Assembly: GCA_021734025.1 (NCBI GenBank)
Contig: JAIPJS010000005.1
Coordinates: forward strand, 2,112-66,111
Length of the DNA: 64,000 nucleotides
Source of the DNA: Fidelibacterota bacterium
Lineage (GTDB): Bacteria; Fidelibacterota; JAANXI01
Direction of reading: 5' to 3'
Positions within the stretch are counted from its first letter, which is position 1. Each line of letters starts with the position of its first letter. A program made the position numbers and the translations under genes. Under the pieces are notes generated by a model. The model did not search any database and was not told where the DNA came from. It saw only the letters and a program-made list of their open reading frames with translations. Positions 3,528 through 44,291 of this stretch are shown one piece after another.

Positions 3528-4541
3528 TCAGGAGGTAACATACCGCAACCGCCGTACCTCGCTCCGGGCAATTCTTGCATACTCGCTGTCCGGATAGTTT
3601 TGAACGACCCGCTCAAACGTGCCGAGAGCCTGTTCTAGTTGACCAAGTCGTTTTTGGGATAATCCGGTAATGACCAGCGCATCGATGCGATGTTTTGTTG
3701 CCTTGAATGCGTTAATGTATTGATCCATTTCTTGAATTGCTTGCGAAAAATTTCCCAGTTGATAATAGCATTCACCCATCCAGTATTGGGCTGTGGCTGC
3801 CAGTTCCCTGTCTTCCGATTGGTCCACGACCTGCCGGAACTTCTTCAGTGCTTCCGCAAAGTTACTGCCATAATACTGCCGGACTCCCAGCAGATACTGG
3901 CGCTCCAAATGTGGCTGCGCCGGCGGAGTCTTTGGCGGTTTCGGTTCATCCGGTCGGAGCGAAGCCGGTGTTGAACTCTTTTCCTCCTGCTTAGATACAT
4001 TCGCCTGCTGCGTCCGTTGGAATTCCTGCTCAAGATATTCGATTTTTCTGGTGAGCTGCAGATTTTGATCCCGCAAATCCGCAATCTGCTCCTGATACTT
4101 GACTCGCAATGCGTTCATTCGCTCCTGCAACTCAGCCAACGTTATCAGGCTGTCCGATGATTGGCCTCCGGCCAAAGTTGGTTGCGCTTGTTGGATTGTC
4201 GTATCAGCGGCCTGCGCGGCGGAATCCAGAGCGGCTTCGTCCGCTTGCATTATGGAATCGATGCGGGCTCTGGCACGAGCCTGTTCTTGTTGCGCAATGT
4301 TCCGGGCGCTTTTGTTGGCCATCTGCTCCAGCTGTCTGGCGGCGGAATCTTTTTCTGCCTCAGTCGGTTCGACCTGGATACCAAGATCATACATCCGGAA
4401 TTTGTTTTCCACGGCTGCGGAATCCGGCGACACGGTCGCAGATTCCGTCTCCGGTGCGGCTAATCCCGATTCCTGGGCAAATCCTGTAATCGCCGGGAAT
4501 ATACATCCCAACAACAGGAGGACCGACAGCTTATTGCGCAT
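3528..4541 (-). CDS. YbgF/CpoB-like protein (signal peptide, coiled-coil, C-terminal TPR)
   Basis: Signal peptide MRNKLSVLLLLGCIFPAITGFA, a long Q/E-rich coiled-coil, and a TPR C-terminus (QYWMGECYYQLGNFSQAIQEMDQYINAF...). Confidence 0.6.
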   Translation of the reverse strand: MRNKLSVLLLLGCIFPAITGFAQESGLAAPETESATVSPDSAAVENKFRMYDLGIQVEPTEAEKDSAARQLEQMANKSARNIAQQEQARARARIDSIMQADEAALDSAAQAADTTIQQAQPTLAGGQSSDSLITLAELQERMNALRVKYQEQIADLRDQNLQLTRKIEYLEQEFQRTQQANVSKQEEKSSTPASLRPDEPKPPKTPPAQPHLERQYLLGVRQYYGSNFAEALKKFRQVVDQSEDRELAATAQYWMGECYYQLGNFSQAIQEMDQYINAFKATKHRIDALVITGLSQKRLGQLEQALGTFERVVQNYPDSEYARIARSEVRRLRYVTS

Positions 4542-5403
4542 TATTATAGTTGGGTACCTCCATGTATTCTGTCACCCGGGGTAACAGATCGCTCTTTGGA
4601 TAATCCTTTTTCAACGATTCAAACGCTTCCCTGGCTGCCATCTTGTTATCCAGTTTCAGGTAACAGAGAGCCCGTTTAAATTGCGCATGATCACCTTTAT
4701 TGGTTGCAGGGAAGTTCAACACCCGTTCGAACTCCTCGGCGGCTTTCTTGTAATCCTCCATAGAATAATAGCTTTCGGCGATCCAGTACTGGGCGTTATC
4801 AGCGTAATCATTGTGTTTATCAATAATAAGGAGCGTCTGGAATTCGGCAATAGCCCGGTAGTAATTCGCCCGGAAATATTCGTTCAGCGCCTTGTTATAG
4901 CGCTCCCGGTACTCGTCCTTACTGATGGGATCCAGCATGCCGGAAAGGTCTTCCGACTTCGTATAGAGGGAGTCCGAGTGCTTGATTTCAGCTGCTATGG
5001 CTTTGTTCTCCGCCGACTGAAGATTCCGGGTAATGAGCAATTCGCGATACGTATCCGACAGACTGTCGATTTCCACGCCGCCGTCATCGCCCGTGATGAT
5101 TCCGCTGCTGCTCCGATATCGCTGCCGCAACCGATGCTGCAGCGTTTGATTTTCCTCTTTCAGTCGGACAATTTCGTTCTTCAGATTGGAGACTTCATCG
5201 TGCAGGTTTTCAATTTGAGATTCCATTTCGAGTACATCCATCCTTTTTTGTTCCAGAAGTTCCTGCTTGCTGAGCTGGGAAGTATCCGACACCGCTGATT
5301 CCGAATGGGGTTCATCACCGGACACCTGCCGGGCACTGCTGCATCCGAGCAGTAGTAAAAGCGAGATTCCCACCGAGAAAAATAATAGAAACCGCTTATT
5401 CAT
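4531..5403 (-). CDS. YbgF/CpoB-like lipoprotein (coiled-coil plus TPR)
   Basis: The start is moved to the internal Met MNKRFLLFFSVGISLLLLLGCSSA (lipobox). It has a coiled-coil followed by a TPR C-terminus (AQYWIAESYYSMEDYKKAAEEFERVL). It is a paralog of the previous gene. Confidence 0.6.
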   Translation of the reverse strand: MNKRFLLFFSVGISLLLLLGCSSARQVSGDEPHSESAVSDTSQLSKQELLEQKRMDVLEMESQIENLHDEVSNLKNEIVRLKEENQTLQHRLRQRYRSSSGIITGDDGGVEIDSLSDTYRELLITRNLQSAENKAIAAEIKHSDSLYTKSEDLSGMLDPISKDEYRERYNKALNEYFRANYYRAIAEFQTLLIIDKHNDYADNAQYWIAESYYSMEDYKKAAEEFERVLNFPATNKGDHAQFKRALCYLKLDNKMAAREAFESLKKDYPKSDLLPRVTEYMEVPNYNNAQ

Positions 5404-24376: not shown

Positions 24377-26104
24377 ATGCCTCTTCCAAATCTCACACTC
24401 ACGAATTTTACCGGGGAAGTATCGTCAACTATCGTTGATAGAGGGCAGGACTATTTTTATCGCGATCTGGTAACTTCGCTTGAGGAATCGCTGGATGGTC
24501 AGTGGGTGGCGCAGGTCAGGGGTACCGCAACATATACCGTCGAAATATCACTTTCCAATGATGTGGTGGCGTCCTGGGCGTGCACCTGTCCTTATGATTA
24601 TGGACCAGTGTGCAAGCACGTGGTTGCAGTATTGATGGAGTTGAAGGAGGGGAAATCTGCGAAAGCCGATCCGGAGCAGAAAAAGCGGTCTACCAGAAAA
24701 TCACCGGAAAGGCGGTTTGATTCACTGGTCGACGACCTGCCGGTGGACGCGCTCCGGAAATTCCTCCGCGATTACGCGCAGTTTCATCCGGAGATGGAAC
24801 GGGAATTCCTGGCAAAATTTACCACTGCGGACGTCCCCGACGCCTGGCGGGATTACGTCGCCGTGATCCGGGAATCGGCGCGGGCAGGCTCCGACCGCCA
24901 TGGATTTATTAAATATTCGAACAGCTTCCGGGTTATGCAGCCGATCCATACGATGATTCAGCAGGCATACGAAAAATTGGAGTCCGCGGAATATCACGCC
25001 GCCTGGCACATCGCCCGCGCCGTAGTGCAGGAAGTGCCGAAACTCATCCAGCGGATGGATGATTCCAGTGGTGACGGCGGTTTTGTGACGAACAACGCCC
25101 TGGAGATCCTCCGGGAAGCCGGCACTGCCACCGAAGATGATGACTTACAGTCGGAGATTTTTCAGTTTTTGCTGAAAGAGTATCCAAAACAGCAGTATTC
25201 CGATTTTGGATTTGATGAGACTATCCTGTCTGTCCTGACAGCACTGATCAGGAATCCCCGGCAGGCTAAGCAGGTGGAGCGGCTCATCAAAGCACAGCTG
25301 GAAGCGGCGGAAAATGCGGAAGATGACTTTGGCTTCGATTACCGGTTTCAGCGAGCGCTGAAACATCAGATCGAATTCCTGGAGCAGACCGGCCGGGAGG
25401 ACGAAGCCGCCGATATTATCGATGCGCATCTGGACATCGAGGAGTTCCGGGAGCGGCGGATTCAGGAAGCATTTGATCAAGAGGATTTCGACACGGCAAA
25501 ATCACTGGTACGGGATGGGATTAAACTTATACGGGAGCAAAAGTATCCGCCTGGATACGAATATCGCTGGGAACAGTGGCTGTTCCGGATTGCCAAAGCG
25601 GAAGAGGACACGGAGAACATTCGTCAATATGCACGGTTCTTTTTCCTCCATCGACGGCAGGATATCTCCTGGTATAAGGAGCTCAGATCGACCTATACCG
25701 ATCAGGAATGGCGCCCAATTCTGGCGGATCTGATTGAGGAGATCCGTTCGAAATCATACTTCCCGGCCCGGGCGCTGGCGGAGGTCTATGCGTATGAACA
25801 TCACTGGGATGATTTGCTGCAATTGTTATCGGAGAACCCGGACCTTTCTCTGCTGAAGGAGTACGGCACTTATCTCAGGGAAGATTTTCCCGAAGACCTC
25901 CTCGCAATATACGGGGAGACCCTGCGCGCCTTTGCGGCGGAGTATACGGGGCGCAAGTATTACCGGGAGATTGTCAGGACGCTGAACAACATCCGGGACA
26001 TCTCCGGTGGCGCCGATTTCGTGCGGAACCTGGTGGCGGAATTCCGGGAAACCTATAATCGCCGCCCGGCGATGCAGGAGGAATTGGATAAGGTAAAGGC
26101 ATAG
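24377..26104 (+). CDS. SWIM zinc-finger domain protein
   Basis: WACTCPYDYGPVCKHVVAVL is the CxC...CxH SWIM signature. The remaining 500 aa is helical-repeat-like. Confidence 0.65.
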   Translation: MPLPNLTLTNFTGEVSSTIVDRGQDYFYRDLVTSLEESLDGQWVAQVRGTATYTVEISLSNDVVASWACTCPYDYGPVCKHVVAVLMELKEGKSAKADPEQKKRSTRKSPERRFDSLVDDLPVDALRKFLRDYAQFHPEMEREFLAKFTTADVPDAWRDYVAVIRESARAGSDRHGFIKYSNSFRVMQPIHTMIQQAYEKLESAEYHAAWHIARAVVQEVPKLIQRMDDSSGDGGFVTNNALEILREAGTATEDDDLQSEIFQFLLKEYPKQQYSDFGFDETILSVLTALIRNPRQAKQVERLIKAQLEAAENAEDDFGFDYRFQRALKHQIEFLEQTGREDEAADIIDAHLDIEEFRERRIQEAFDQEDFDTAKSLVRDGIKLIREQKYPPGYEYRWEQWLFRIAKAEEDTENIRQYARFFFLHRRQDISWYKELRSTYTDQEWRPILADLIEEIRSKSYFPARALAEVYAYEHHWDDLLQLLSENPDLSLLKEYGTYLREDFPEDLLAIYGETLRAFAAEYTGRKYYREIVRTLNNIRDISGGADFVRNLVAEFRETYNRRPAMQEELDKVKA

Positions 26105-26354: not shown

Positions 26355-26786
26355 GCAGCCGGATTTTTGCAGCACTTTTTCTAAAAAAGTGCGGAGAAAA
26401 AGAAATTTATCTTCCGATACAGGTTCGGATTTATAAAAAAGGTTAATCTGTTGTACGGTTATGCAATCACATTAATTTAGTTTTAAGCATCCCCGTTTTG
26501 TCTTGATACAAAACGGGGTAAAAAATCAAGGCTGCCACTACAATTTCGGTATCGGCACCCATTCCCTCCGGGCCAGAACCAGAACTCCCTGCGGTCAGAC
26601 AGCTGGTTCTGGCTGTCCTATGGTCATGGGCCGATAGAGCAAAATTGTAGTGGAGGCCGGAGTAAAAAACAACGGTGGCCAAAATTGAAAACGATGCCAA
26701 AACTAAAAAGTGAAGAGAAGCGTTGGTTTTATCGGTCTCGCCACTCCTTTGGTACGAACTACTGGTGCGATGAGGACAGGATAATA
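26355..26786. repeat. modular structured repeat, locus B (one complete unit, forward orientation)
   Basis: Module order is the gcagcac hairpin, then gttgtac..cacatc, the CTTGAT hairpin at 26491-26518 (perfect 11-bp stem), aaaaaatcaaggctgccac, the ccagaaccagaact..cagctggttctgg hairpin, caaaattgtagtggaggccgg, and gatgaggacaggataat. Confidence 0.7.
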
Positions 26787-27296
26787 TTAATGGCTCCAAT
26801 TCTTTTTAAGATTTTCAAACGCATGCAGCAGTTTTTCATTTCTGCGATAGTATAAATTGTGTTCGAAGACCTGTTCTAACTTTACAATGGCTTCATCTGT
26901 CGTTAGGGTGTTTTCCATTACCATCCGATCAAAAGCCCACAACAACCCATGTGTCTTTATCTTGTGCTTTCTTCCCATTTTACGCAAAACGCCATCGCTG
27001 GTTAGCAGCAATGCACTTTCCTTTTTAGCAAGAAACCAAACTGAGCGGTCGGCAATCGAAAGGGACATGGACAGGTTGAAGGGATCCGTTTCGTCAATAA
27101 AGTTCTCTTCGATTTCAACAATAGTGAGTTTTTCTTTTTCTACCCATGTGGATAAAAATTCACGTTGGTCTTGATCTAACTCCATCCACACCTGATATGA
27201 GGTAATAATATTATGGGGTAATTGGAAAAAGGCATTACAAGCATCGCACAGCAGCAAATCGATAAATATCGAAGCATCTGTGACGGCTAATTTCAT
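26787..27296 (-). CDS. DUF4411-like PIN-fold protein, the usual partner of an ImmA/IrrE metallopeptidase
   Basis: MKLAVTDASIFIDLL... N-terminus. It has a 1-nt gap or overlap with the upstream HTH-ImmA gene. The pairing is recognised from gene context. Confidence 0.5.
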   Translation of the reverse strand: MKLAVTDASIFIDLLLCDACNAFFQLPHNIITSYQVWMELDQDQREFLSTWVEKEKLTIVEIEENFIDETDPFNLSMSLSIADRSVWFLAKKESALLLTSDGVLRKMGRKHKIKTHGLLWAFDRMVMENTLTTDEAIVKLEQVFEHNLYYRRNEKLLHAFENLKKNWSH

Positions 27297-28352
27297 CTAT
27301 CCCAGGAGGAAGTTGTGACGGAATTCGTTTATCGGCTGATTCTTCAGTGCTGCGGCCTTCGAAATAGAGATATACTCCTCTGCCAGCGCCTGGCCGATTA
27401 ACTGATCGAATCGGAGAGCCTGTTCCTCTCCGGTGTATTCTGCCAGATCGGACTCATCCTGTCTCAGGTTATTGCTGTTGATAAATTTGTAAAAATCCCG
27501 GTAAGCCCCTTCACTCATAATCTCCAATTCCTTCAGCCGGGTCGCGATGGCTTGTATCGAGATCCCGTACTGTCGTTTCAGTGAAGCAAGTTCCTGTAAA
27601 GAAACTTTCTTCCGCTTTAAACCGAGTTCTGCTTCAACTGCCCGCTTATCCAGCAGCATCGCACCGGCAAAATGATGGCAAAGACTTTCCTGCTTCCGGT
27701 GATTCATGTGGTTAATATTCAAAAGGAGATGTCCGAGCTCGTGCATCGCATTGAACCGGTAGCGGTCAAGTGAACCTTTTTTCTCTTTATTCAGAACGAT
27801 AACCGGGACAGAGTTGTTAATCCAGGAAGAAAAACCATCGATCGAATCGTCGCCACTCAATTCGATTATTTTGATACCCCGATCTTCCAGCAATTCCAGA
27901 ACATTGTAGAGGGGATCGATGCCGAGATTCCATTGATCCCTCAATTGCTGCGCTGCGTTTTCGACATCCTTTTTATTGGTAATATTTTGTTCTTGTAGTG
28001 GATTTTTTACATGTGGCTGGGTACCGAGAATTTTTTCCAGCTCAAGATAGCGTTCCAGGAAATCACGTGCGGTTTCCACAATTCGGTTCTGTTCTTTTTT
28101 CTGGAGCCTTGACAGTTTTCTAAACGAAATCTCCTCGATTTCTACCGCATGATCCCGATAAAAGTAATCCGGTTTCAAATCCAAAGCATCTGCGATGTTT
28201 TGGATCATCACGTTGCCCGGTACGACCTGCCCTTTTTCATACTTGTGCAGCGCCTGCCTGCTGATTCTATTGTCGAGACGATCAGACAAGTCCTGCAACG
28301 AAAATCCCCGCATAAGACGCGCATGTTTTAAACGCTGTGCAAGTTGTGGCAT
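27297..28352 (-). CDS. XRE-family HTH fused to ImmA/IrrE (COG2856) zinc metallopeptidase domain
   Basis: N-terminal HTH (LKHARLMRGFSLQDLSDRLDNRISRQALHKYEKG). HEXXH motif HELGHLLLN within a DUF955-like region. Confidence 0.75.
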   Translation of the reverse strand: MPQLAQRLKHARLMRGFSLQDLSDRLDNRISRQALHKYEKGQVVPGNVMIQNIADALDLKPDYFYRDHAVEIEEISFRKLSRLQKKEQNRIVETARDFLERYLELEKILGTQPHVKNPLQEQNITNKKDVENAAQQLRDQWNLGIDPLYNVLELLEDRGIKIIELSGDDSIDGFSSWINNSVPVIVLNKEKKGSLDRYRFNAMHELGHLLLNINHMNHRKQESLCHHFAGAMLLDKRAVEAELGLKRKKVSLQELASLKRQYGISIQAIATRLKELEIMSEGAYRDFYKFINSNNLRQDESDLAEYTGEEQALRFDQLIGQALAEEYISISKAAALKNQPINEFRHNFLLG

Positions 28353-28612: not shown

Positions 28613-28689
28613 GCGATGCGAGTCAAAAAGACCTTGACAGGTGTCCGGGACCCTGCCAGGGTCTATCGGCATCAATCATTCCAATTTGA

Positions 28690-29465
28690 CTTTATTCCCC
28701 CTTTTGCCTTGATGCAAAAGGGGGCGAAAAAATCAAGGCTGCCACTACAATTTCGGTATCGGCACCCATTCCCTCCGGGCCAGAACCAGAACTCGGTCAT
28801 TGCATTCTCTCAAACAGATAATACTGGCTTTACGTCGGACGTTGGCCGACAGAGCGAAATTAATTTGAAGGCCAAGTTCCAAAAGCACGAGAGTCGGTTT
28901 TTCGGTCTCGCCATGCTTGAGCCCCAGTTCCGGCGTCTACCTTTCGACAAGCTCAGCTCCGGAAGGAGCCTCTTCCGAGGGATGACGCCTCTAGGAGTCA
29001 CTCTGAGCCTGTCGAAGAGTGGCAAACTCTTTGTCTATCGAATGTGAGGAATTTCCCAAATTGGAGTGAAAGATAAATTCATGAATTATTCAGGTTAGGT
29101 TTTCATAAAAACGTTTATCGATTGTATCGGGAAGCAATTATATCAATTTGACTTTATTACCCGTTTTGTCTTGATACAAAACGGGTAGAAAAAATCAAGG
29201 CTGCCACGACAATTTCGGTATCGGCACCCATTCCCTCCGGGCCAGAACCAGAACTCCCTTCGGTCAGACAGCTGGTTCTGACGATCCTCCAGTCATGGGC
29301 CGATAAAGCAAAATTGTAGTGGAGGCCGGATGAACAAAACAGTATACAATCTGAAAAATATCAGTAGTACACAAAATTGAAAGCGAGGCCAATACCTTAA
29401 AGCAAAGGGAATAATACTGTAGTTTATCTGTTGTACTTCAGTCACATCTTGGTAATATTACACCC
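28690..29465. repeat. modular structured repeat, locus C (two partial units, forward orientation)
   Basis: CTTGAT hairpins at 28696-28724 (stem cccccttttgc/gcaaaaggggg) and 29160-29185 (stem cccgttttgt/acaaaacggg). Each is followed by aaaaaatcaaggctgccac..cggtatcggcacccattccctccgggccagaaccagaact. The locus ends with ctgtagtttatctgttgtacttcagtcacatc. Confidence 0.7.
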
Positions 29466-29529: not shown

Positions 29530-29952
29530 ATGACCGACGTTCACGAGCCGGAAGTCCGCAGTTACAATATGAGCCGGATTCGGGGTAAGGATACTAAACC
29601 CGAAATGCTGGTTCGGAAGTTTTTGCATTCCTACGGTTTTCGTTACCGGTTACACGTGAACAATTTGCCTGGAAAACCGGATCTGGTTTTACCAAAATAT
29701 AACACCGCGATATTTGTTCACGGCTGCTTCTGGCATGCGCACGAAGGATGTGAGTACTTCAAAATTCCGCAAACCCGAACGGAATTTTGGAAAGAAAAAT
29801 TATTCGGTAACAGAGAAAGGGACGAGGAAAACATTTCTGAACTCCGGAAAATGGAGTGGAACGTTATCGTGGTTTGGGAGTGTGAGTTAAAATCAGAGGA
29901 AAAGGAAGTGAAACTTCAGGAAATTGCAAATAAGGTTGAAGAAAATAAATGA
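29530..29952 (+). CDS. vsr: very-short-patch repair endonuclease
   Basis: MSRIRGKDTKPE...FVHGCFWHAH.GC...TEFW..K...N..RD...L...GW.V..VWECE are classic Vsr motifs. Confidence 0.85.
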   Translation: MTDVHEPEVRSYNMSRIRGKDTKPEMLVRKFLHSYGFRYRLHVNNLPGKPDLVLPKYNTAIFVHGCFWHAHEGCEYFKIPQTRTEFWKEKLFGNRERDEENISELRKMEWNVIVVWECELKSEEKEVKLQEIANKVEENK

Positions 29953-30386
29953 GCATACCTGTTATTGACATTTTTGCCGGCCCTGGAGGCTTAGGAGAAG
30001 GATTTAGTTCCGTTATGAATGAAGAGGGAGAACGGTTTTTTAATACAGTCCTCTCTATTGAAATGGATGAGTATGCTCACGAAACGTTAGAGTTACGAAG
30101 TTTTTTCCGCCAGTTTGCGCCCGGCAAGGCTCCTGAAGAGTATTACAAGTTTTTACGGCAGGAAATCGATAAAGAAGAATTATTTAAGTCTTGGCCTGAG
30201 CAGGAAGAAAAAGCAAAAAATGAAGCTTGGAATATCAAGCTTGGATTTGATGAAAGTTCAGTAACCCCAGATGAAGTCGATCGAAGGATAAGGGTTGCAT
30301 TAAACAATGAAAAAAAATGGGTTTTGATCGGTGGCCCTCGTTGCCAAGAAAAGCCTATGCCGACTCTCAATGGCCAAAATCTGTGA
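29949..30386 (+). pseudogene. remnant of a DNA (cytosine-5)-methyltransferase (motifs I-IV only)
   Basis: Motif I FAGPGGLGEGF. Motif IV is degenerate (GGPRCQ instead of GGPPCQ) and is followed by unrelated residues, with a stop after 145 aa. No downstream frame continues an MTase. It overlaps the vsr stop (ATGA). The intact paralogous dcm starts 450 bp further on. Confidence 0.6.
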
Positions 30387-30835: not shown

Positions 30836-32041
30836 ATGAAATACATAGATTTATTTGCGGGTGCCGGCGGTCTTTCTGAAGGTTTTTACAGGGAAGGATT
30901 TGAAGCTGTGGCTCATATTGAAAAAGATCACCATGCTTGCCAGACTATTAAAACCCGGACTGCCTTTCATTATTTAAAGCAGGAAAATCATATCTCTGAA
31001 TATATTCGTTATCTGAACCAAGAAATAACAAGAGAAGAATTCTATGATTTAATACCTGATGAAATACTTGATACGGTAATTGACGCTGAAATATCGGAAG
31101 AGACCTTAGAAGACCTTTTCAATTTAATTGACCAGAAGCTTGAGGATGAAGAACTTGATTTAATAATTGGTGGCCCTCCTTGCCAGGCATACTCTAGTGC
31201 CTCCGCTTATATTGAAGAAAAAAACGAAAAATTAATTTATTTATATGAATTATATGGTGAATTCCTTGATCACTTTACTCCAAAGATGTTCATCTTTGAA
31301 AATGTACCTGGAATTTATACGGCAGATGAAGGAAAATATTATGAAGGGCTGAAAGAATGCTTTAAAAATGCGGGCTATGAATTTGAAGATAAAAAATTGG
31401 ATGCTTCTGAATTTAACGTACCACAGAAGAGAGAACGGGTAATCATAATTGGTTGGAGAGAAAACTTAGATTTATCATATCCTGAATTTGAAAAGAAAAT
31501 ACCCGATACAAAGATTGACGAATTATTTAATGATTTACCAGACCTTGAACCAGGCAAGTCTTACGATCCGGGAAATCACTACACACAAGGAGGATCTGAG
31601 TATGTTAATACCTATATCCGAAACGGAATAGATGTATTGACACACCACATTGCCCGCCCTCATAATGAAAGAGATTTGAATATTTACAGAATGGCTATAG
31701 AAAGATGGGAAGGAGGTGCGAGGTTAAAGAATTCAGATATTCCTGAAGAGATGAGAACTCAAAAAAATATCTCATCTTTTTTGGATCGTTTTAAAGTAGT
31801 TGATGGTGAAGGTTTTTCTCATACTATGATAGCTCATATCGCCAAAGATGGTCATTACTACATTCATCCGGATCAGAAGCAATTACGCTCTATTTCAGTT
31901 AGGGAAGCGGCCAGAATTCAGTCTTTTCCAGACGATTACTTTTTTGAAGGACCTCGAACTTCTGTATTTACTCAAATTGGCAATGCTGTGCCACCAATTC
32001 TTGCACAAGAAATAGCACGCAAAATAAAAAGGGTCCTTTGA
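30836..32041 (+). CDS. dcm: DNA (cytosine-5)-methyltransferase
   Basis: Motif I DLFAGAGGLSEGF, motif IV GGPPCQAYSSAS, motif VI ENVPG, and motif X QIGNAVPPILAQ. Confidence 0.85.
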   Translation: MKYIDLFAGAGGLSEGFYREGFEAVAHIEKDHHACQTIKTRTAFHYLKQENHISEYIRYLNQEITREEFYDLIPDEILDTVIDAEISEETLEDLFNLIDQKLEDEELDLIIGGPPCQAYSSASAYIEEKNEKLIYLYELYGEFLDHFTPKMFIFENVPGIYTADEGKYYEGLKECFKNAGYEFEDKKLDASEFNVPQKRERVIIIGWRENLDLSYPEFEKKIPDTKIDELFNDLPDLEPGKSYDPGNHYTQGGSEYVNTYIRNGIDVLTHHIARPHNERDLNIYRMAIERWEGGARLKNSDIPEEMRTQKNISSFLDRFKVVDGEGFSHTMIAHIAKDGHYYIHPDQKQLRSISVREAARIQSFPDDYFFEGPRTSVFTQIGNAVPPILAQEIARKIKRVL

Positions 32042-34401
32042 TGACTAATTATAAAGAGATATCAACTTATTCTTTTACTCCAGGGGCAATGTCAATTATT
32101 CAGATGGGCGAAGAACTCATTGGGCAACCCAATACTGCTATTAATGAATTAGTAAAAAACGCCTATGATGCCGACGCAAAGAATTGCGAAGTTTATTTTC
32201 ACAGTGCTGAATCAAAAGAATCATCCTTTACTCTAATTTTTGATGATGGAAATGGGATGGATGAGTCTATTCTATTTGGTGATTGGCTTAAGCCTTCTGT
32301 AAGTGATAAACGAAAGGAGGGGGTTAAAAGTCCTGTATATGGAAGAAATTTATTGGGTAGTAAAGGAATTGGCAGACTTGCTTCTATGGCCCTGGGCAGG
32401 CTTGTTACTGTTATTTCAAGACAAAATCCTTCGGATGATTATAACTGGATAACAGTAGACAGGGAATTATTTAAGGAGGAAGCTTTACTTAAGGATATCA
32501 AATTTCCAGGCTCAAGCATTGAGAACTACCTAGATTTATTTAGAGATGAGGAGTTACTAGAAATTAGAAACTCTTATGAAAATGATGAGCTTTTTGAGGT
32601 TCTGAAAAAAAATGACCTTGATCATTTTGAGAAAGGCACATTAATATTGATTGAGGAGTTTGATGAAGCGGTAGTTAAAATTCTCAGGAAAGATTTTCTC
32701 GAAAGTAACGAGAAATTAAATGAGCACTCTCTGAAGAGTACCAATTTCTATAAGTCTTTAGCCACACTTATTACTCCGATAACTTTAAGTTCGGAAATCC
32801 AGGATGAATTATTAGAAAGAGAAATAATTGATGCGAAGAAAATCATTGCATCAAAAGATGATTCATTTGAAATAAGTTTTGGAATCAATTTGCTCCCTGA
32901 TCAGGAAAAATCTGAAATAGAATGGCAGGATATAGACCCAATTCCAATACTTGATGTTTTTGATTACAGGGTCTTTGGTAAAGTTACTGGCGAAGGTGAT
33001 GTTGATGGATATCTTGGCTTCAACAGACTTGAAAAAGATGGCCATGAAATAACTTTTTCAATTTCTCGGAATGAAATTAAAGATAAAAGCTTACGCGGTA
33101 AGGATCAGCCGACATTATTTGATAATGAAAGTGATTCTGAAAATGAAATGGAGACAGGCGAATATTACTTTGACTTCCGAGTATATGATATGGGAGAATC
33201 TGATAATCGGGCAAAACTATCTGAAAAAGCTGGGTTCGAAAATATAAATACCTTTAGAAGTACTTTTAAAGAATTTCAAGGGCTTAGGGTTTCAAAAAAT
33301 GGATTTGGTGTAAAGCCATATGGGGAAGAGGTCGAAGACTGGATAGGTTTATCTAAAGCGAGAGTTCAGAATCCAGGTCAAAATGTTAATACCAATCAGA
33401 TTATTGGTTATGTCTTTTTCTATTCCCCGGAAAATGATCAGATTGAAGAAAAGACTAACAGAGAAGGTTTTCTTGAAAACACAGCTTTCATTCAGGTTAA
33501 GGAAACTTTAAAAGTTATTTTCAAAAACCTAGGACGTAAAAGGTATAACTATCGATTAAAGCATGGTCTTGGCAGGGTGCCTTCCAGTAAACATAAAAGA
33601 CCTAACATAGATAAGTTTCTAAAGTCTATTGAATCCAGTAAAAATGTAGATCAGGCCAGAAAAAAATCAGAAAAATTTGTCAAAGAGATTACGACTTCTT
33701 TGGATAATTTAGAAGAGGCATTAACATTTTCAGAACGATTAGCATCTCTTGGTAGCGGAATAGAACTGGTGTATCATGAGATGGTACAGCCTATTTCAAC
33801 TTTGAGAACTACGAAATCTTCCTTAGATCTAAAGAAAGAGAAAATTGCTGAGGCGGTTAAAGAGATCTTCCTCAACGATATAAATTCATTGAATAGTGCA
33901 ACTGATGTATTAGCAGAGTTAAGAAATTCTCTTCAACCTGCAATAGGGAGAACAAGAACTAAAAAATTCAAACCTGTTGATACCTTTTTGCGGGTATGCA
34001 CCTTATTTAAAACGGATTTTGAGGATGCAGAAATTAGTATAAATCTTATTGGAGAAACTGAAAATTTTACTCTGAAAGATTATGAATACCCCTTCTGGAT
34101 AGCTTTCCTGAATATTTTAAATAATGCCGTTTATTGGATAAAAAGGTCGGAGGAACCAGGAACTATTTATTTTCAAATAGACAATGGAAACATAATAGTA
34201 GGTAATACAGGACCGCTTATATCAGAAGATATTATAGAAGATATTTTTGAATATGGTGTCACAACCAGAAAAGAGAAAAATGCAACCGGATTAGGCCTTT
34301 CTTACACGCAAAGTATTCTCAGTAAAAATGATTGGGACATAACAGCTGAGAATCGAAAAAATGGACCGGTATTTATAATAAAAAAGCAAGAAAGTGAATA
34401 A
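32038..34401 (+). CDS. fusion protein: N-terminal MORC/Hsp90/MutL-like GHKL ATPase domain, about 380 aa of unknown middle region, C-terminal histidine-kinase core (HisKA H-box plus HATPase_c)
   Basis: N-terminal N-box ELVKNAYDADA, G1 FDDGNGM, G2 GSKGIGRLAS. C-terminal H-box ELVYHEMVQPISTL, N-box FLNILNNAVYW, G1 QIDNGN, F IFEYGVT, G2 GLGLSYTQSIL. The start overlaps the dcm stop (ATGA). Confidence 0.6.
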   Translation: MMTNYKEISTYSFTPGAMSIIQMGEELIGQPNTAINELVKNAYDADAKNCEVYFHSAESKESSFTLIFDDGNGMDESILFGDWLKPSVSDKRKEGVKSPVYGRNLLGSKGIGRLASMALGRLVTVISRQNPSDDYNWITVDRELFKEEALLKDIKFPGSSIENYLDLFRDEELLEIRNSYENDELFEVLKKNDLDHFEKGTLILIEEFDEAVVKILRKDFLESNEKLNEHSLKSTNFYKSLATLITPITLSSEIQDELLEREIIDAKKIIASKDDSFEISFGINLLPDQEKSEIEWQDIDPIPILDVFDYRVFGKVTGEGDVDGYLGFNRLEKDGHEITFSISRNEIKDKSLRGKDQPTLFDNESDSENEMETGEYYFDFRVYDMGESDNRAKLSEKAGFENINTFRSTFKEFQGLRVSKNGFGVKPYGEEVEDWIGLSKARVQNPGQNVNTNQIIGYVFFYSPENDQIEEKTNREGFLENTAFIQVKETLKVIFKNLGRKRYNYRLKHGLGRVPSSKHKRPNIDKFLKSIESSKNVDQARKKSEKFVKEITTSLDNLEEALTFSERLASLGSGIELVYHEMVQPISTLRTTKSSLDLKKEKIAEAVKEIFLNDINSLNSATDVLAELRNSLQPAIGRTRTKKFKPVDTFLRVCTLFKTDFEDAEISINLIGETENFTLKDYEYPFWIAFLNILNNAVYWIKRSEEPGTIYFQIDNGNIIVGNTGPLISEDIIEDIFEYGVTTRKEKNATGLGLSYTQSILSKNDWDITAENRKNGPVFIIKKQESE

Positions 34402-35521
34402 TTTGGGTACAATAATTCATTTAGACAACGATGAAAAAATTCTTCAAGATTTTAAAGGGCTATTCGATCAGTCCGGTATTAATCTTGATTTAGTCACTTG
34501 CCAAACAAAAGATGAATTTTATAAGCTTATTGAAGAGCATAAAAATTCTCTAAAGGCATTGGTCTTTGACTTATTAAGTTCTGAGCCCGGTAAAGAAGAA
34601 CTACACAAAGGTGATGCAGAATTTCTGGACTCTGTAGAGGATAGTTTTTCTACGGTTAGTATTCCTATTTTCATTTACAGCGGGTTTTTAGAAGCTATTG
34701 AGGAACAATTTGAAACCCATGGAACTGTGTTTAAAATTGATAAAGCAAATGGGCCAGACGAAATACTCAGGCTGATCAAGCTTTTTGATGAATCTGGATT
34801 TTTAGACGTATTTAGCCCGGGTGGAAAAATTGAAAAAGATTTTCATAATGAATTAAATAAATCTTTTATATCTCAATTCACAAATAACAAGCAAATAGAA
34901 GAAATAATTAACACTGTTGCTGAAGAGGATGTCAAAGAATCTAAAGAAAGGGTTGAAAAGGTCTTTAAGAGAATTGCCTTAAGGTCACTTTTAACCGTGC
35001 TTCAGTTATCAGAAAATGAAGGAGATGAGGAATACCTTAATCCGGTTGAGCACTATGTGAAAAGAATTAATGATCAAAAGATTGTAACTGGAGATATCTT
35101 TTTTAGCCAAGAAAAAAACGAGCATTTATTAGTAATGACACCCAGATGTGACCTTGCTAATAAAGATCCTCAAGAAATTTTAGTATGTAATATTGATACA
35201 GAAAAATTTCCAGATAAGACGACAAGTAACACTCAGAAAGGTAAAATTCTTAATGCTATTACTGATAATCCTGAATATTCAGGTTATGACAGATACTTAG
35301 TTAGGTCCCCTTTTTTTGTTGGCGGCTTAATAAAAATTGGATCTTATTCAATGATAGCAAAGGAAGAATTACTGTCTAGTTACGATCTTCAGATAACATT
35401 AAGTGATGAACTTACAAATGAAATACTGGGTAAATTTGGATCTTATTTTTTCCGTACTGGAATTACAACATGGGATCTTGACGAAACTGTAAAATTCATA
35501 GAGTCGATAAAGGAAGATTAA
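34394..35521 (+). CDS. receiver (REC) domain protein with about 250-aa C-terminal domain of unknown function
   Basis: GTG start overlapping the kinase stop. IIHLDNDE (beta1 acidic pair), ALVFDLL (putative phospho-acceptor Asp near residue 59), IPIFIYSG (Ser/Thr position), and VFKIDK (Lys position) match a CheY-like spacing. I recognised nothing in the C-terminal region. Confidence 0.5.
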   Translation: MNNLGTIIHLDNDEKILQDFKGLFDQSGINLDLVTCQTKDEFYKLIEEHKNSLKALVFDLLSSEPGKEELHKGDAEFLDSVEDSFSTVSIPIFIYSGFLEAIEEQFETHGTVFKIDKANGPDEILRLIKLFDESGFLDVFSPGGKIEKDFHNELNKSFISQFTNNKQIEEIINTVAEEDVKESKERVEKVFKRIALRSLLTVLQLSENEGDEEYLNPVEHYVKRINDQKIVTGDIFFSQEKNEHLLVMTPRCDLANKDPQEILVCNIDTEKFPDKTTSNTQKGKILNAITDNPEYSGYDRYLVRSPFFVGGLIKIGSYSMIAKEELLSSYDLQITLSDELTNEILGKFGSYFFRTGITTWDLDETVKFIESIKED

Positions 35522-35523
35522 AA

Positions 35524-36228
35524 TTGACCTTCAAAAACTGGCTCATATCTACTGGACGAAAACCAATTTCAGCAAAGAAATATGAAAGTGCCGTATACGG
35601 ATCAATTTCTGGTTGGGCAGAAGAGGCTGGAATAGTAAAGTCAAACCTAATTGATGTCAATGATCCTGAAGAGTTTGAATCACTTTCCAATAGGATTAAA
35701 GAACTTGAGATTTTTCTGGAAAGAAATACTGATGGACATCAGATGTACAGCGCTGCATTAAACAGGTACTCAGAATACCTGATAGCTATCCAAAATGAAA
35801 TTGAAGAGGATATAGACAAAGTATCAAATGATGATTCTGTTTCTGAAACTGAAAAAGACAGTCTTATTAAATCCCGTCTGGGTCAGGGCGTTTTCAGAAA
35901 AAGTCTGATGGATTACTGGCAGAGATGTGCAGTAACCGGCTATCAATCCTCTAAATTATTAGTCGCTTCACACATTAAACCATGGAGAAGTTCCGATAAC
36001 AAAGAGCGTATGGATGTGTTCAACGGCCTGTTATTGATTCCAAATCTTGATAAAGCTTTTGATAAAGGCTTCATATCTTTCAAAAAGAATGGTAGCATTA
36101 TAATTTCAGAGTTTTTCCAAAAACCGGCTTCATTGGGAATAAAATCTGATTTAAATCTTAAGATTTCTAATAGGCACCAACCATATCTTGAATACCACCG
36201 TGATATAGTATTTCTGCAAGCTAATTAA
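35524..36228 (+). CDS. HNH endonuclease (HNH_2-type) with N-terminal domain of unknown function
   Basis: TTG start 2 nt after the REC gene stop. C-terminal CAVTGYQSSKLLVASHIKPW...NGLLLIPNLDKAFDKGFISF is the HNH_2 signature. Confidence 0.65.
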   Translation: MTFKNWLISTGRKPISAKKYESAVYGSISGWAEEAGIVKSNLIDVNDPEEFESLSNRIKELEIFLERNTDGHQMYSAALNRYSEYLIAIQNEIEEDIDKVSNDDSVSETEKDSLIKSRLGQGVFRKSLMDYWQRCAVTGYQSSKLLVASHIKPWRSSDNKERMDVFNGLLLIPNLDKAFDKGFISFKKNGSIIISEFFQKPASLGIKSDLNLKISNRHQPYLEYHRDIVFLQAN

Positions 36229-38092: not shown

Positions 38093-39505
38093 TTAAAAAC
38101 GAATTTCTGCCTGAATCATGGAAAGAAACGCTGTGCGGTTGTTTTCGTCCCGAACCGGCACGACAGAAAAAGAGGGAATCACATCAAATGATTTCCGGGA
38201 TTCAAGAGTAGAGTAGGTGCCATCTCTGCTGACATCCAGGATGGAGCGCGTCAGAAAGAAACCGCCGGCGCCACCGGCCATAACCATTGCAGAGATAACC
38301 TTTCCGTCGTTGATAGAAGTCAAAGCGGCGGTACCAAGGCTGAACGCCATACCGGAACCTGTACCCAGTGCCATAAGTACCGCCTCTCCAAACTGGTAAT
38401 CATCTTTGGAAATGTACCGATCCATCAGAAAGGCACCACCCAAACTTCCGACTGTTCTCATTGTCAGGCTAAGCGAGGACTCCAAATCGATATCTGCAAT
38501 CTCCGAAAGTAACCCTGCGTACATCAGGCCAAGCAACCGTCCCTCGTAGAGCATAAGGGCGTCACCGAACGTATAATTCCGGTCGCCGAAGTACCGGTGT
38601 CCCAGGTAAATACCCAGTGGATAGCCGGCCATCTCCATGAGTGCATCGGTGCGTTTCCATTCCTGATATTTTTGAAGAGCCTGATTATACTCTTGCTCAT
38701 GAAAAATGTATTGGCCTGACCAGGGGTTATATTCTTCATATTCCCATTGCTCTGGTTTGTCTTCTGTGCCGGCCGAAATACGGTGCAGGTTCCTTGAAGC
38801 ATAGCCTCCTAATTCGCCCCACAGACTGAGTGCCCAGGAGTGGCCATGACTCGGCTTCCACTGTTTATACAGGTAATCTCCAGCCCATATCCCAGCCGGA
38901 ACAGAAGCCATTAACGACACAGCCCAGCCCTTGGAACTGTTGGTAAAAAGGTCAACTTCGGAAGGCCATAATTCGAAGACATCATTGACTAAATAGCCAT
39001 ATCGTAGTCCCAGCACCGATCCGCCTCGCATCATCTGGGCACGGCTGTACGGTATGTTCATATTTTTTGTGTACTGGTAGGTCAAATAAAATGCACCGCC
39101 GATTGAAAGCATTTCCGTCCCGACATACCACTTGGGATTCTCGGCATCCAGGACAAACGGAATCGTCCAGCCGTACAATCCGCTGCCGATAGCAATATTT
39201 TGGAGGACGACCGGCCAGCGGCCGGACTGGTCTAACCGGTCAGGTTGATTTCGGATGATGTCGTTTTCGAGCCGGGTAACCAGATTGTCCGGTAGATGAA
39301 GAGAGGACTGGAGAGTCCGCAGCAGATACCGCTCATTCTCATCGATGGATCCGTCACGGAAAGCGGAACGCAACAGATTTTCGTAAATTCCTTGCGGATT
39401 CAGGGAATCGGAGGGTATAGTATCTGCGGCAGTGGTTTGACCCGTTGCCGTGACTGTAAGGCAGCACAGCACCAGTATTACTGGAAACGCATAGAGGTAT
39501 TTCAT
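38093..39505 (-). CDS. hypothetical exported protein
   Basis: Signal peptide MKYLYAFPVILVLCCLTVTATGQ. 470 aa rich in G/A/M, possibly an outer-membrane protein. Confidence 0.5.
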   Translation of the reverse strand: MKYLYAFPVILVLCCLTVTATGQTTAADTIPSDSLNPQGIYENLLRSAFRDGSIDENERYLLRTLQSSLHLPDNLVTRLENDIIRNQPDRLDQSGRWPVVLQNIAIGSGLYGWTIPFVLDAENPKWYVGTEMLSIGGAFYLTYQYTKNMNIPYSRAQMMRGGSVLGLRYGYLVNDVFELWPSEVDLFTNSSKGWAVSLMASVPAGIWAGDYLYKQWKPSHGHSWALSLWGELGGYASRNLHRISAGTEDKPEQWEYEEYNPWSGQYIFHEQEYNQALQKYQEWKRTDALMEMAGYPLGIYLGHRYFGDRNYTFGDALMLYEGRLLGLMYAGLLSEIADIDLESSLSLTMRTVGSLGGAFLMDRYISKDDYQFGEAVLMALGTGSGMAFSLGTAALTSINDGKVISAMVMAGGAGGFFLTRSILDVSRDGTYSTLESRKSFDVIPSFSVVPVRDENNRTAFLSMIQAEIRF

Positions 39506-41807: not shown

Positions 41808-44291
41808 TCAAAGATAACAGCTTTTATTCCAAAAGATAGACGCCACCACCACAATCCCATAACACCCCAGCGCAATCCCCATCGTCACCGTAAACCCGAA
41901 CTCCATGGATAGCATCACACCCAGCGGCGCGGCCACCACCGAGGCAAATCCGTTGATCCCCCACGCCCAGGGAATAAGCGGTTCGCTCCGGTTTTCCAGG
42001 ATTTCGATGCCGGCGGGAAAGAACCATCCCATGCAGAAGGCCAGCGGAAACAGGGCGATAAACGTCACAAGGAAGCGGACTGCGGTTCCGAATCCGATAA
42101 ATAGGTTCAGGAAGGAATCCAGTCCCAGCAGATAGAGTCCTGCGATGGCAAGTAAACCAATCCCGGCGGCCTGGATTCGCCTGGCGGCCGGCATGTTGAT
42201 ACGTCGCTGGGATGCACTTCCCAAACCTGCGAATACCAGGATAGCGGTGAGCGCCGCCGCTACACTATAAATCGGATCGCCCATAAACTTGGTGAACCGC
42301 TGAATATAGACCATCTCCAGGAACATAAAGCCGAATCCGATGCCGGCGAAGTGAAGGAGCGTCCAGCCGGACGTTCGGTTCAGTGGCAGCGACCGGTTCC
42401 GGAAGAAGAGCGGCAGCAGGATGAGCACAAACGCGATGAGGGAAACCTCGATGAGTGTAATAACCAGCACCGCGTACCCAAGCTCCAGTCGCTGGAGCCA
42501 CTGTCTGCCGTAGGTTTCCATAAATTGATCCACAGAACTCCACTTAAAGAAGTTGAAAAAGTACGGCTGCTCGTCGGTGGCGGGACGCACGTTATACGCC
42601 CAATTCTGATAAAATTGTTTGGCATTTCCGGCGATTATCCGTCCGGCAGCGTGATGCAGATAAGAATACGACTCGCCTTCCGGCCCCGCTATTTTGTTTC
42701 GCTGCTCCAGCGCCGCTCCGGAGATCCCGGGAAACCAGCCCGCATCCATGATCAGCGAATCGCAGACCGCGCGGAATGCGGTGATCTGCTCCGTTGAAAT
42801 TCGCGACTTTGCCAGAATCGTATTCGCCGCCAGGTAATTTCGGCTCTGCAGCATATGATATTCCGGACTTTCGACTCCGGATGACTCCAGAGATTCGTAA
42901 AACGTGGCAAAGATCTTGATATTATCCCTGGGCGGTGACTGGATTCCTCGTGTGATGCTTAGGAGTCCGTCCGGTGTTAATCGCTTAATACACTGCGCAA
43001 TACCCTCAACCGTCAACAGGTAATTCTCGTGTAGCGACTGCAATCCACTCACACCAGCGGACATTCCCTCCACACCCGCAATCTGGATGATGTCGTACTG
43101 TTCCTCGGTCTGCTCCAGAAACAGCCTTGGATCCTCGTTGATTACCGTGACGTTCCCCTTCAGATATATCCGCCCCGACTCCCCTGCGAATTCATTTTTC
43201 ATTAAATTCGTCAACTGCGGATTGGTCTGTACTACCGTGATCGATTCGGCGCCGAACCGCCGCGCAAGCCAGGCGTTCGTCCCGCCAACTTCACCAAGGA
43301 GCAGTACCTTCGGATTTTCCGTCAATCGATACGGAACCGATTGGGGCGTGTAATCCAGGATTGCAGTTTCATCCAGACTATCGACGGTAAAAATGGTGCC
43401 GGCCATTCCTCCGTCCATGAGCAGGGAGAACTGGGCAGGAGGCATTGCCTGAGATTGGAGTCCGGCGAACAACGTCTGATGCACCCTTTCCGATTGATAC
43501 ACATCAATCCGCGCCCGTGGACCGGGCTCCTGAATCAGAGGGGTTGCATCTCCCTGCGCTTCCAATCTTTGGAAATTCGCCAGCGCTTTGTACTGGTCGA
43601 CCGTCTCCAATGGATGGAGAAACACCGAAATCCCGGTAACGATAATCCCGGCTCCGAGGAGGAAGAATGTGAACGGTTTCCGCTCCCCGAAAAAGCTTAC
43701 CGGACTTGAGAATATCAAGCATAGCAAACCAATCAGAACGGTGAGCGCAAGTTTCAGGGGCAGGGCAATCGCCGGGATAAAAAACATAGCCAAAACCGCC
43801 AACATACCGCCGATTCCGCTTCCCAGGAGATCTGCTGCGTACAGCGTGGAAACTTCTTTGCGAAAATAGGAGATTGCCGCGCCAACAATTACCGCGCCGA
43901 AGAAAAACGGCAGGAGTATCAGCAGGTTGTAGAGCAGCATCAACAGTTGCTGGCGGGCGCTGAACAGGACATATCGTGTGTCAATGGGTAACGACTGAGC
44001 GGCGAGATAGCTCACTGGAATTGAGATCAGGAAGACCAAGTAGAAAAGCGGAACCCAAAACGCAAACCGGGATTTCATTCGCTCATAGAAAAACGCGAGA
44101 AATGTCCCGCTCACGCCAAAACCCAGCAATGCCGTGCTGATCACCAGATACGAGAAGTGGTGATACCGCACCACGGAAAGCGCCCGCATGAGAAAGAGCT
44201 GAAGTCCCACCAGCGTCACAGACACGAGGAAGATGGAGAGGAGTGTATATCGGTTGAACTGAAATGACCTTCTTTTATCGGCAGAATTCAT
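41808..44291 (-). CDS. fused polytopic membrane domain / spermidine-synthase-like (class I MTase fold) protein
   Basis: 827 aa. It has N- and C-terminal multi-TM regions. The central region contains LLLGEVGGTNAWLARRF...DIIQIAG, typical of the spermine/spermidine synthase family. Confidence 0.6.
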   Translation of the reverse strand: MNSADKRRSFQFNRYTLLSIFLVSVTLVGLQLFLMRALSVVRYHHFSYLVISTALLGFGVSGTFLAFFYERMKSRFAFWVPLFYLVFLISIPVSYLAAQSLPIDTRYVLFSARQQLLMLLYNLLILLPFFFGAVIVGAAISYFRKEVSTLYAADLLGSGIGGMLAVLAMFFIPAIALPLKLALTVLIGLLCLIFSSPVSFFGERKPFTFFLLGAGIIVTGISVFLHPLETVDQYKALANFQRLEAQGDATPLIQEPGPRARIDVYQSERVHQTLFAGLQSQAMPPAQFSLLMDGGMAGTIFTVDSLDETAILDYTPQSVPYRLTENPKVLLLGEVGGTNAWLARRFGAESITVVQTNPQLTNLMKNEFAGESGRIYLKGNVTVINEDPRLFLEQTEEQYDIIQIAGVEGMSAGVSGLQSLHENYLLTVEGIAQCIKRLTPDGLLSITRGIQSPPRDNIKIFATFYESLESSGVESPEYHMLQSRNYLAANTILAKSRISTEQITAFRAVCDSLIMDAGWFPGISGAALEQRNKIAGPEGESYSYLHHAAGRIIAGNAKQFYQNWAYNVRPATDEQPYFFNFFKWSSVDQFMETYGRQWLQRLELGYAVLVITLIEVSLIAFVLILLPLFFRNRSLPLNRTSGWTLLHFAGIGFGFMFLEMVYIQRFTKFMGDPIYSVAAALTAILVFAGLGSASQRRINMPAARRIQAAGIGLLAIAGLYLLGLDSFLNLFIGFGTAVRFLVTFIALFPLAFCMGWFFPAGIEILENRSEPLIPWAWGINGFASVVAAPLGVMLSMEFGFTVTMGIALGCYGIVVVASIFWNKSCYL

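Follow-up and report, generated by a model that had tools for sequence, protein, structure and literature searches.

The 64,000-nucleotide stretch of DNA analyzed here, referred to throughout as the window, comes from a Fidelibacterota bacterium (GenBank assembly GCA_021734025.1, contig JAIPJS010000005.1, positions 2,112 to 66,111 of the forward strand). At 34394–35521 (+) it carries a gene, read from a GTG start, for a 375-a.a. protein that joins a divergent receiver (REC) domain and a helical linker to a C-terminal barrel predicted to adopt the fold of the MazF/Kid/CcdB toxins. The gene directly follows that of a histidine-kinase-like protein, which itself follows a cytosine methyltransferase gene, and the pairing of kinase and receiver protein recurs across related genomes. 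The most likely reading, which we hold tentatively, is a defensive phosphorelay that is linked to methylation, resembles Detocs, and gates a toxin of the MazF fold, where the phosphotransfer, its trigger, the toxicity, and the target are steps that we infer.

Domain architecture of the receiver protein

A protein identical to the product of this gene is deposited in NCBI from a Candidatus Marinimicrobia metagenome-assembled genome, under the label 'hypothetical protein' and with a TTG start at 34403, giving 372 a.a. More than 150 full-length homologues (36–77% identity) were noted, mostly in Bacteroidota and all without annotation, and this full-length conservation rules out a pseudogene or a chance open reading frame (ORF). 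A profile search with the C-terminal region retrieved 588 cluster representatives (50% identity) at E ≤ 1e-3 and 230 at E ≤ 1e-10. Nearly all of the complete matches are 340–400 a.a. in length with the match placed in the C-terminal part of the protein, and given this uniformity in length and position, the architecture of receiver, linker, and barrel appears constant across the 588 representatives. No relatives were found in viral contigs, and promoter and terminator scans returned background levels only. Searches of the whole protein and of its two halves against Pfam, NCBIfam, and PADLOC gave nothing meaningful (DyP_N, KaiA_N, and cyanophycinase noise at E ≥ 0.01), and a profile built from 61 homologues found nothing relevant among the PDB sequences, retrieving designed Rossmann proteins only.

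The N-terminal domain (34409–34795, +; residues 6–134) displayed a flavodoxin-like (βα)5 fold and a CheY-like pocket, comprising an aspartate at the end of β3, an acidic pair after β1, a serine or threonine after β4, and a lysine after β5. Residue conservation was counted in 61 close homologues and in 75 further sequences forming a distant branch (136 in total). The aspartate of the 'VFDLL' motif (D59, codon 34568–34570) and K117 are invariant among the 61 close homologues, all of which also have D or E at position 11 and S or T at position 96, while position 13 is acidic (D/E) in 52. Pfam Response_reg (PF00072) did not match the window protein, and in its relatives the model reached sub-threshold scores only (1 of the 61 close and 24 of the 75 distant sequences; best ~28–30 bits against a cut-off of 30.2). 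Judged by the conserved pocket residues, the N-terminus is a divergent receiver that should be catalytically complete. An earlier note on this DNA, made from the letters alone, had described the first 120 residues as CheY-like and expected them to model as a flavodoxin-like receiver; the fold and the intact phospho-acceptor pocket bear out both points.

A linker of three helices (34814–35005, +; residues 141–204) connects the receiver to the barrel. Four of its residues are invariant (Q161, F162, R186, and R193), and a structure search with this segment gave no match. The barrel itself lies at 35048–35464 (+), where residues ~219–357 form a beta-rich domain with a long helix at its end, the terminal helix extending to residue 375. 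This arrangement corresponds to the SH3-like barrel plus C-terminal helix of the toxin fold, and when the barrel was compared to the PDB via Foldseek, the top 50 matches were MazF/Kid chains only (probability 1.00; TM-score 0.6–0.74, target-normalized). On these fold matches, the C-terminal domain is assigned a predicted MazF/CcdB toxin fold. We rejected a conventional DNA-binding response regulator, as no fold of the helix-turn-helix (HTH) type is present. The earlier note had seen no recognizable motif in the C-terminal 250 residues and had named a housekeeping DNA-binding output as the outcome that would speak against a novel effector. The absence of motifs stands at the level of sequence, as the null searches indicate, and falls at the level of fold, where a MazF/CcdB-type barrel emerges; the fold being that of the MazF/Kid/CcdB toxins, the domain is not a housekeeping DNA-binding output.

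The conserved motifs of the barrel are E219-H220, T232-G-D234, T249-P-R-C252-(D/N), G310-G311, LSDELTNE343, and R354-x-G356, of which the invariant set comprises E219(-H220), T232-G-D234, P250-x-C252-(D/N), G310-G311, and R354-x-G356. The 75 sequences of the distant branch keep the TGD, PxCD, GG, and RxG motifs. We further aligned the barrel with MazF using hhalign, taking either one MazF sequence or a multiple alignment of 11; the profile-profile comparison set 70 barrel sequences from both branches against a small MazF/Kid alignment. The MazF profile is shallow, as the S. aureus MazF homologues among the matches listed all share at least 72% identity. The reference sequences of S. aureus MazF, E. 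coli MazF, and Kid are identical to PDB 4of1, 3nfc, and 1m1f. The barrel and MazF/Kid align collinearly over the whole domain, first strand through terminal helix, but the alignment is statistically insignificant. Within it, TGDIF of the barrel pairs with RGDVY of MazF, LLVMTP with VVIIQN (IVTP in Kid, the barrel's MTP pairing with TP/SP), ILVCNID with VIVAAIT, GGLIKIGSYSMIAKEEL with DSVILLEQIRTLDKKRL, ITLSDELTNEIL with LTYLSDDKMKEVD, and LSDELTNEIL with LSDDKMKEV.

Compared to the type II toxins MazF/PemK/Kid and CcdB (and also the type III toxins CptN/ToxN), the barrel shares the collinear order of secondary structure elements, a GD in strand 1, and a T-P after strand 2. It differs in its own invariant PxCD and RxG motifs and in a helical insert of 30 residues that follows strand 3 and precedes strand 4. 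Whereas the MazF/CcdB toxins are accompanied by an antitoxin partner, the barrel instead has a receiver and a helical linker attached in cis.

The kinase partner and the methylase island

The gene immediately upstream (32038–34401, +) encodes a 787-a.a. protein that combines a paraMORC-type GHKL ATPase, a DHp segment, and a histidine kinase, and which is the presumed sensor and phosphodonor of the receiver protein. Its N-terminus carries a HATPase_c_3 domain (Pfam, E 8e-20, residues 31–149) with MORC2 as the best PDB sequence match, its middle region is strongly conserved, and its C-terminus carries a HATPase_c domain (E 5e-10, residues 689–781), with an AtoS/ChvG/CreC-like NCBIfam match over residues 524–779. 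Both GHKL domains retain intact ATP-binding boxes. The H-box (H580-E581, codons 33775–33780) is located on a DHp-like helix, and, like the N-box and the GLGL box, is invariant in 27 kinase homologues. The stop codon of dcm overlaps the kinase start by 4 nt, the kinase stop overlaps the start of the receiver gene by 8 nt, and a gap of 2 nt separates the receiver gene from the HNH_2 gene that follows it; together, these distances indicate translational coupling.

The neighborhood of the receiver gene was compared in 26 related loci from Bacteroidota, Balneolota, and Ignavibacteriota, four found via exact-protein look-ups and 22 from GTDB genomes. In all 26, the gene immediately upstream of the receiver gene is kinase-like; a Dcm homologue stands just ahead of the kinase in 22, and a Vsr homologue is present in ~16. 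The third gene is variable: among the 24 loci with a contig that reaches past the receiver gene, 16 have HNH_2 after it, as does the window, and some loci instead have unknown proteins of 283–298 or 662 a.a. No HNH_2 is present in L001, L015, L017, L022, and L025, where the module nevertheless keeps its methylase and where the barrel is the sole toxin-like domain besides the kinase. In two of these loci, an HhH-GPD DNA glycosylase stands downstream of the receiver gene, the usual place of Vsr or HNH (L015, 8086–8751; L017, 5355–5981), and probably serves as a T:G mismatch glycosylase in place of Vsr. In L015, a NOV_C-domain protein (3835–4605) is additionally found between dcm and the kinase, and L002 and L004 each have an extra C-protein-like HTH gene.

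Three Cytophagales/Lentimicrobiaceae loci (L023, L024, and L025) have the pair without a Dcm homologue upstream. A domain scan of L023 (268–4610) and L025 (148–4487) revealed a 1080-a.a. nSTAND1-like NTPase and a PAPS-reductase-family protein preceding the pair, and the upstream ORFs of L024 are size-matched to these. This gene order hints at an ability of the pair to combine with another type of DNA-modification module, possibly a Dnd-like one. In Flagellimonas sp. SN16 (L026, 7001–7645), the receiver protein is only 214 a.a. long and consists of the receiver and part of the linker without the barrel, with dcm and the kinase intact; this locus is either a natural effector-less variant or a decaying one.

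Distant members of the superfamily, including those on Enterobacter and Bacillus plasmids, show the pairing of kinase and receiver protein too. On the Bacillus plasmid, as in two metagenomic lineages, the pair adjoins a C5-methylase; the stretch retrieved from the Enterobacter mori plasmid contains no annotated methylase. One lineage also has a type I restriction-modification (R-M) system beside the pair, and another has an unknown 283-a.a. gene and Vsr. When the Enterobacter pair was searched against E. coli genomes with blastn, nothing matched. The constant core of these loci is the kinase and the receiver protein; a DNA-modification gene is almost always linked to it, and the third gene, possibly a nuclease gene, varies.

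In the window, this core is part of a cytosine-methylase island of ~29.3–36.3 kb, which has a GC content of 0.33–0.38 compared to ~0.50 in its flanks, and in which all genes are on the + strand. The flanks carry housekeeping genes, such as rsgA, and the island is horizontally acquired. Its first gene encodes a Vsr very-short-patch repair endonuclease (29530–29952, +; Pfam Vsr, E 1.5e-32; PADLOC Vsr, E 1.6e-37), the enzyme of the T:G repair that accompanies 5-methylcytosine (5mC) methylation. The intact C5 cytosine DNA methyltransferase of the Dcm type is found at 30836–32041 (+; Pfam DNA_methylase, E 6.6e-59; PADLOC DrmMII-like, E 2e-158) and is the putative modification, or self-marking, component. 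Between the two sits the 145-a.a. N-terminal remnant of a second C5-methylase (29949–30386, +), which has an intact motif I and a motif IV degenerated to GGPRCQ followed by a stop. At motif IV, the remnant resembles the intact dcm in its DNA (repeat D8), and the ~450 nt that come after it hold no convincing ORF. It is probably a pseudogene or a recombination scar, suggesting that an incoming cassette overwrote an older Vsr-Dcm system.

The last gene of the island, downstream of the receiver gene, encodes a 234-a.a. HNH_2 endonuclease (35524–36228, +; Pfam HNH_2, E 5.8e-13; PADLOC HNH, E 5e-28). Residues 99–231 of this protein are homologous to the nuclease domain of VcaM4I (PDB 6yex, E 3e-34), a modification-dependent enzyme (5mC/5-hydroxymethylcytosine) with an EVE sensor (PMC7897488). 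In place of this sensor, the window protein has an unrelated helical N-terminus of 98 a.a. As regards a type II R-M system, Dcm, Vsr, and HNH_2 are all present in the window, and HNH_2 lacks a recognizable DNA-specificity domain and is missing in about a third of the loci. The earlier note had made its proposal of a toxic effector conditional on a defensive locus, and the R-M/defense-type context of Vsr, Dcm, and HNH supports that setting.

A structured repeat of ~200 nt was noted upstream, in three copies on the + strand (26490–26700, 28668–28794, and 29150–29345). The copies agree in a 56-nt core with at most one mismatch, where no copies are expected by chance. The RNA fold of the repeat combines a hairpin with a long-range stem (minimum free energy −67.7 kcal/mol, z −4.45), and no Rfam family matched. 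The copies flank an RmrA-like gene pair and stand ahead of the Vsr-Dcm-kinase island; the repeat may be an element similar to miniature inverted-repeat transposable elements or repetitive extragenic palindromes, or a junction or recombination site of a defense hotspot. The gene pair (26787–28352, −), with an intermediate GC content of 0.42–0.47, is a candidate defense or toxin-antitoxin-like pair and comprises an HTH_3 + Peptidase_M78 protein (PADLOC RmrA-like, E 6.5e-54) and a 169-a.a. PDC-S70-like protein with weak PIN similarity. Among the large ORFs flanking the island, one of 575 a.a. (24377–26104, +) has a SWIM zinc finger as its sole Pfam match, and two others of 470 a.a. (38093–39505, −) and 827 a.a. 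(41808–44291, −) have no Pfam match.

Relation to described modules

Modules of this kind were described in silico by Bellieny-Rabelo et al. in 2021, who reported an 'RR-like' protein with a divergent receiver (Response_reg_2, PF19192) linked in 91.6% of cases to an 'HK-like' protein composed of HATPase_c_3, HEF_HK (PF19191), and HATPase_c (PMC8011034). The neighborhoods of this pair, including those in Chryseobacterium, Flavobacterium, and Hymenobacter, are rich in C5-methylases, Vsr, and HNH_2, and the RR-like proteins had no known domain beyond the receiver, with the authors speculating on a role in R-M regulation (PMC8011034). The window closely parallels this description, as both have a soluble HATPase_c_3 + DHp(H-E) + HATPase_c protein beside a ~360-a.a. 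divergent-receiver protein, with a C5-methylase upstream and Vsr and HNH_2 nearby. PF19192 and PF19191 gave no match to the window proteins, the 136 receiver relatives, the Enterobacter and Bacillus homologues, or the kinases, where the presence of PF19192 in the Pfam copy used is unconfirmed; PF19191 is reportedly among the current Pfam entries. We therefore regard the window family as a divergent branch of the RR-like/HK-like module and not as a certified Pfam member.

The earlier note had called the protein a candidate novel effector; as a kind of gene it is not novel, since the family and its pairing with a GHKL/histidine kinase beside C5-methylases, Vsr, and HNH_2 had already been described (PMC8011034). 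In that study, the RR-like protein had no assignment for its C-terminal two thirds, whereas the present analysis divides this part into a linker and a MazF/CcdB-fold barrel. We found no paper that assigns the C-terminal domain, and a 2025 review of R-M systems does not mention such modules. What appears to be new here is what the output domain is, namely a module of the MazF/CcdB fold whose conserved site is non-canonical.

The best functional analogy is Detocs, a validated defensive system in which a histidine kinase acts on a receiver-effector protein and in which defense needs the kinase histidine and the receiver aspartate (bioRxiv 10.1101/2023.01.24.525353). Detocs and the window module share a histidine kinase and a response regulator in which a toxic effector, in the window a candidate one, replaces the DNA-binding output. 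They differ in most of their components. The stand-alone buffer receiver DtcB has no counterpart in the window; the sensor DtcA has TPR repeats where the window sensor has a paraMORC GHKL clamp; and the effector DtcC is a PNP ATP nucleosidase where the window candidate is of the MazF fold. Unlike Detocs, the window module is genetically tied to a DNA methylase.

The kinase also places the module near the paraMORC GHKL ATPases (Iyer et al. 2008). These include fusions to HEPN RNases in R-M neighborhoods, proposed as PrrC-like RNase back-ups (PMC3710099), and the validated paraMORC-nuclease Shedu variant VcSduA (paraMORC3; PMC12137116). An N-terminal HATPase_c_3, an R-M context, and a nuclease-type effector are common to these proteins and, in the predicted effector at least, to the window module; in the window, however, the effector sits on a receiver protein of its own, coupled via an additional DHp-CA kinase and not by direct fusion. 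MADS was rejected as the known system to which the module might belong, given it is an N6-methylase system of eight genes in which a kinase is merely an island boundary.

A candidate phosphorylation-gated effector and its alternatives

Under the phosphorelay reading, the 787-a.a. kinase would sense a cue at the level of the DNA or of the infection, with unmethylated DNA, or the loss or inhibition of methylation, as the most economical guess. It would then autophosphorylate on H580 and pass the phosphate to D59 of the receiver protein. Phosphorylation of the receiver would alter packing or dimerization, as in ordinary response regulators, such that the C-terminal MazF/CcdB-fold domain is released or assembled. 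Because MazF/Kid toxins function as dimers, activation would probably occur via dimerization. The barrel would subsequently arrest growth or damage the invader, most probably by binding or cutting nucleic acid at the dimer interface in the manner of MazF/Kid, using a different catalytic set drawn from the invariant TGD/PxCD/RxG residues, and HNH_2, where present, would contribute DNA cleavage. A role in abortive infection is likewise something that we infer. The earlier note's picture of a toxic effector activated by phosphorylation agrees with the receiver pocket and the toxin fold, but the canonical catalytic Arg/Thr pair of MazF appears not to be conserved.

Several observations weigh against a phosphorelay-gated toxin. 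A sequence link between the barrel and PemK/MazF/CcdB is absent, with no match to the Pfam models PF02452 and PF01845 at E ≤ 10 and an hhalign probability of just 1.3–3.2% against MazF. In that non-significant alignment, the catalytic Arg/Thr of MazF (R25/T48 in S. aureus) correspond to the variable residues E242/D268, and the long β1-β2 loop that bears the Arg in MazF is cut to five residues in the barrel. With the dyad positions variable and the loop missing, RNase activity by the known mechanism is unlikely, and on these alignments the barrel, if it is an enzyme, would not use the MazF dyad. Even within the family's own motifs, R251 of PRCD is an Ala in the distant branch. No antitoxin-like gene (a small MazE/PemI/CcdA-like ORF) was noted among the island genes, the PADLOC defense models gave no match to the receiver protein, and no paper testing the module experimentally was found in the literature. 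HNH_2 is present in two thirds of the loci, and the real killing activity could lie elsewhere. Finally, both the direction of control (whether phosphorylation turns the effector on or off) and the signal that is sensed are guesses. A more elaborate version of the phosphorelay-gated toxin, in which an R-M-like immune module has the MazF-fold toxin, in place of a DNA endonuclease, as its restriction arm, the MORC clamp-kinase reads methylation (or an attack on the methylase) and signals by His-Asp phosphotransfer, and the barrel acts through a new catalytic or binding site (TGD/PxCD/RxG) under in-cis control without an antitoxin, is possible but doubtful.

The apparent absence of the MazF residues is also what lends weight to the idea that the barrel is a non-catalytic adaptor or regulator. 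It would bind nucleic acid or protein and, on phosphorylation, recruit or license either a nuclease (HNH_2 or the product of the variable third gene) or the paraMORC clamp itself, making the module an ATP- and phosphorelay-controlled DNA restriction enzyme with no toxin. Given HNH_2 has a VcaM4I-type nuclease domain without the modification sensor (PMC7897488), its targeting would need to come from elsewhere, and the variable third gene that follows the receiver gene in many loci, together with the classic R-M trappings around the module (Vsr, and the C-protein HTH in L002 and L004), is in keeping with such a role. Against it stand complete loci that have neither a third gene nor another nuclease domain (L001, L022, and L025) or a glycosylase only (L015 and L017), as well as the invariant polar residues E219, D234, C252, and R354 of the barrel, which are typical of an active or ligand-binding site. 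We consider an adaptor unlikely on balance. A non-enzymatic poison similar to CcdB, unleashed by phosphorylation to bind a protein such as DNA gyrase or another essential enzyme, would equally be compatible with the apparent loss of the MazF catalytic residues; it is improbable, however, as MazF/Kid dominate both fold searches, the GD in strand 1, the T-P after strand 2, and the LSDE...helix are closer to MazF/Kid than to CcdB, and nothing in the locus points to gyrase.

We give as little credence to a purely regulatory two-component system, where the pair would just control the neighboring R-M genes and have no effector function of its own. Signaling control of R-M systems has been proposed (PMC8011034), and the loci that lack a C-protein might need another regulator. 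However, the output has no HTH or other DNA-binding fold of response regulators, and its structural relatives are toxins only; the pair is kept in loci that have a dedicated C-protein HTH (L002 and L004); and the kinase bears a MORC-type DNA-clamp ATPase and not a signal-input domain.

If the methylation-linked, phosphorelay-gated toxin proves true, the module would wire together epigenetic self-marking, two-component phosphotransfer, and MazF-type toxins, a combination undemonstrated so far. It would be a second phosphorelay used in immunity after Detocs, mechanistically distinct from it, and would place a MazF-fold domain under the control of phosphorylation and not of an antitoxin. Sensing by a paraMORC ATPase would also become directly testable, with kinase autophosphorylation as the read-out. 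For the family as a whole, it would provide a concrete output for a widespread pair (588 clusters) that has been named only 'RR-like/HK-like' since 2021, and the assignment of the barrel turns the output of the RR-like proteins into a testable hypothesis of a phospho-gated toxin.

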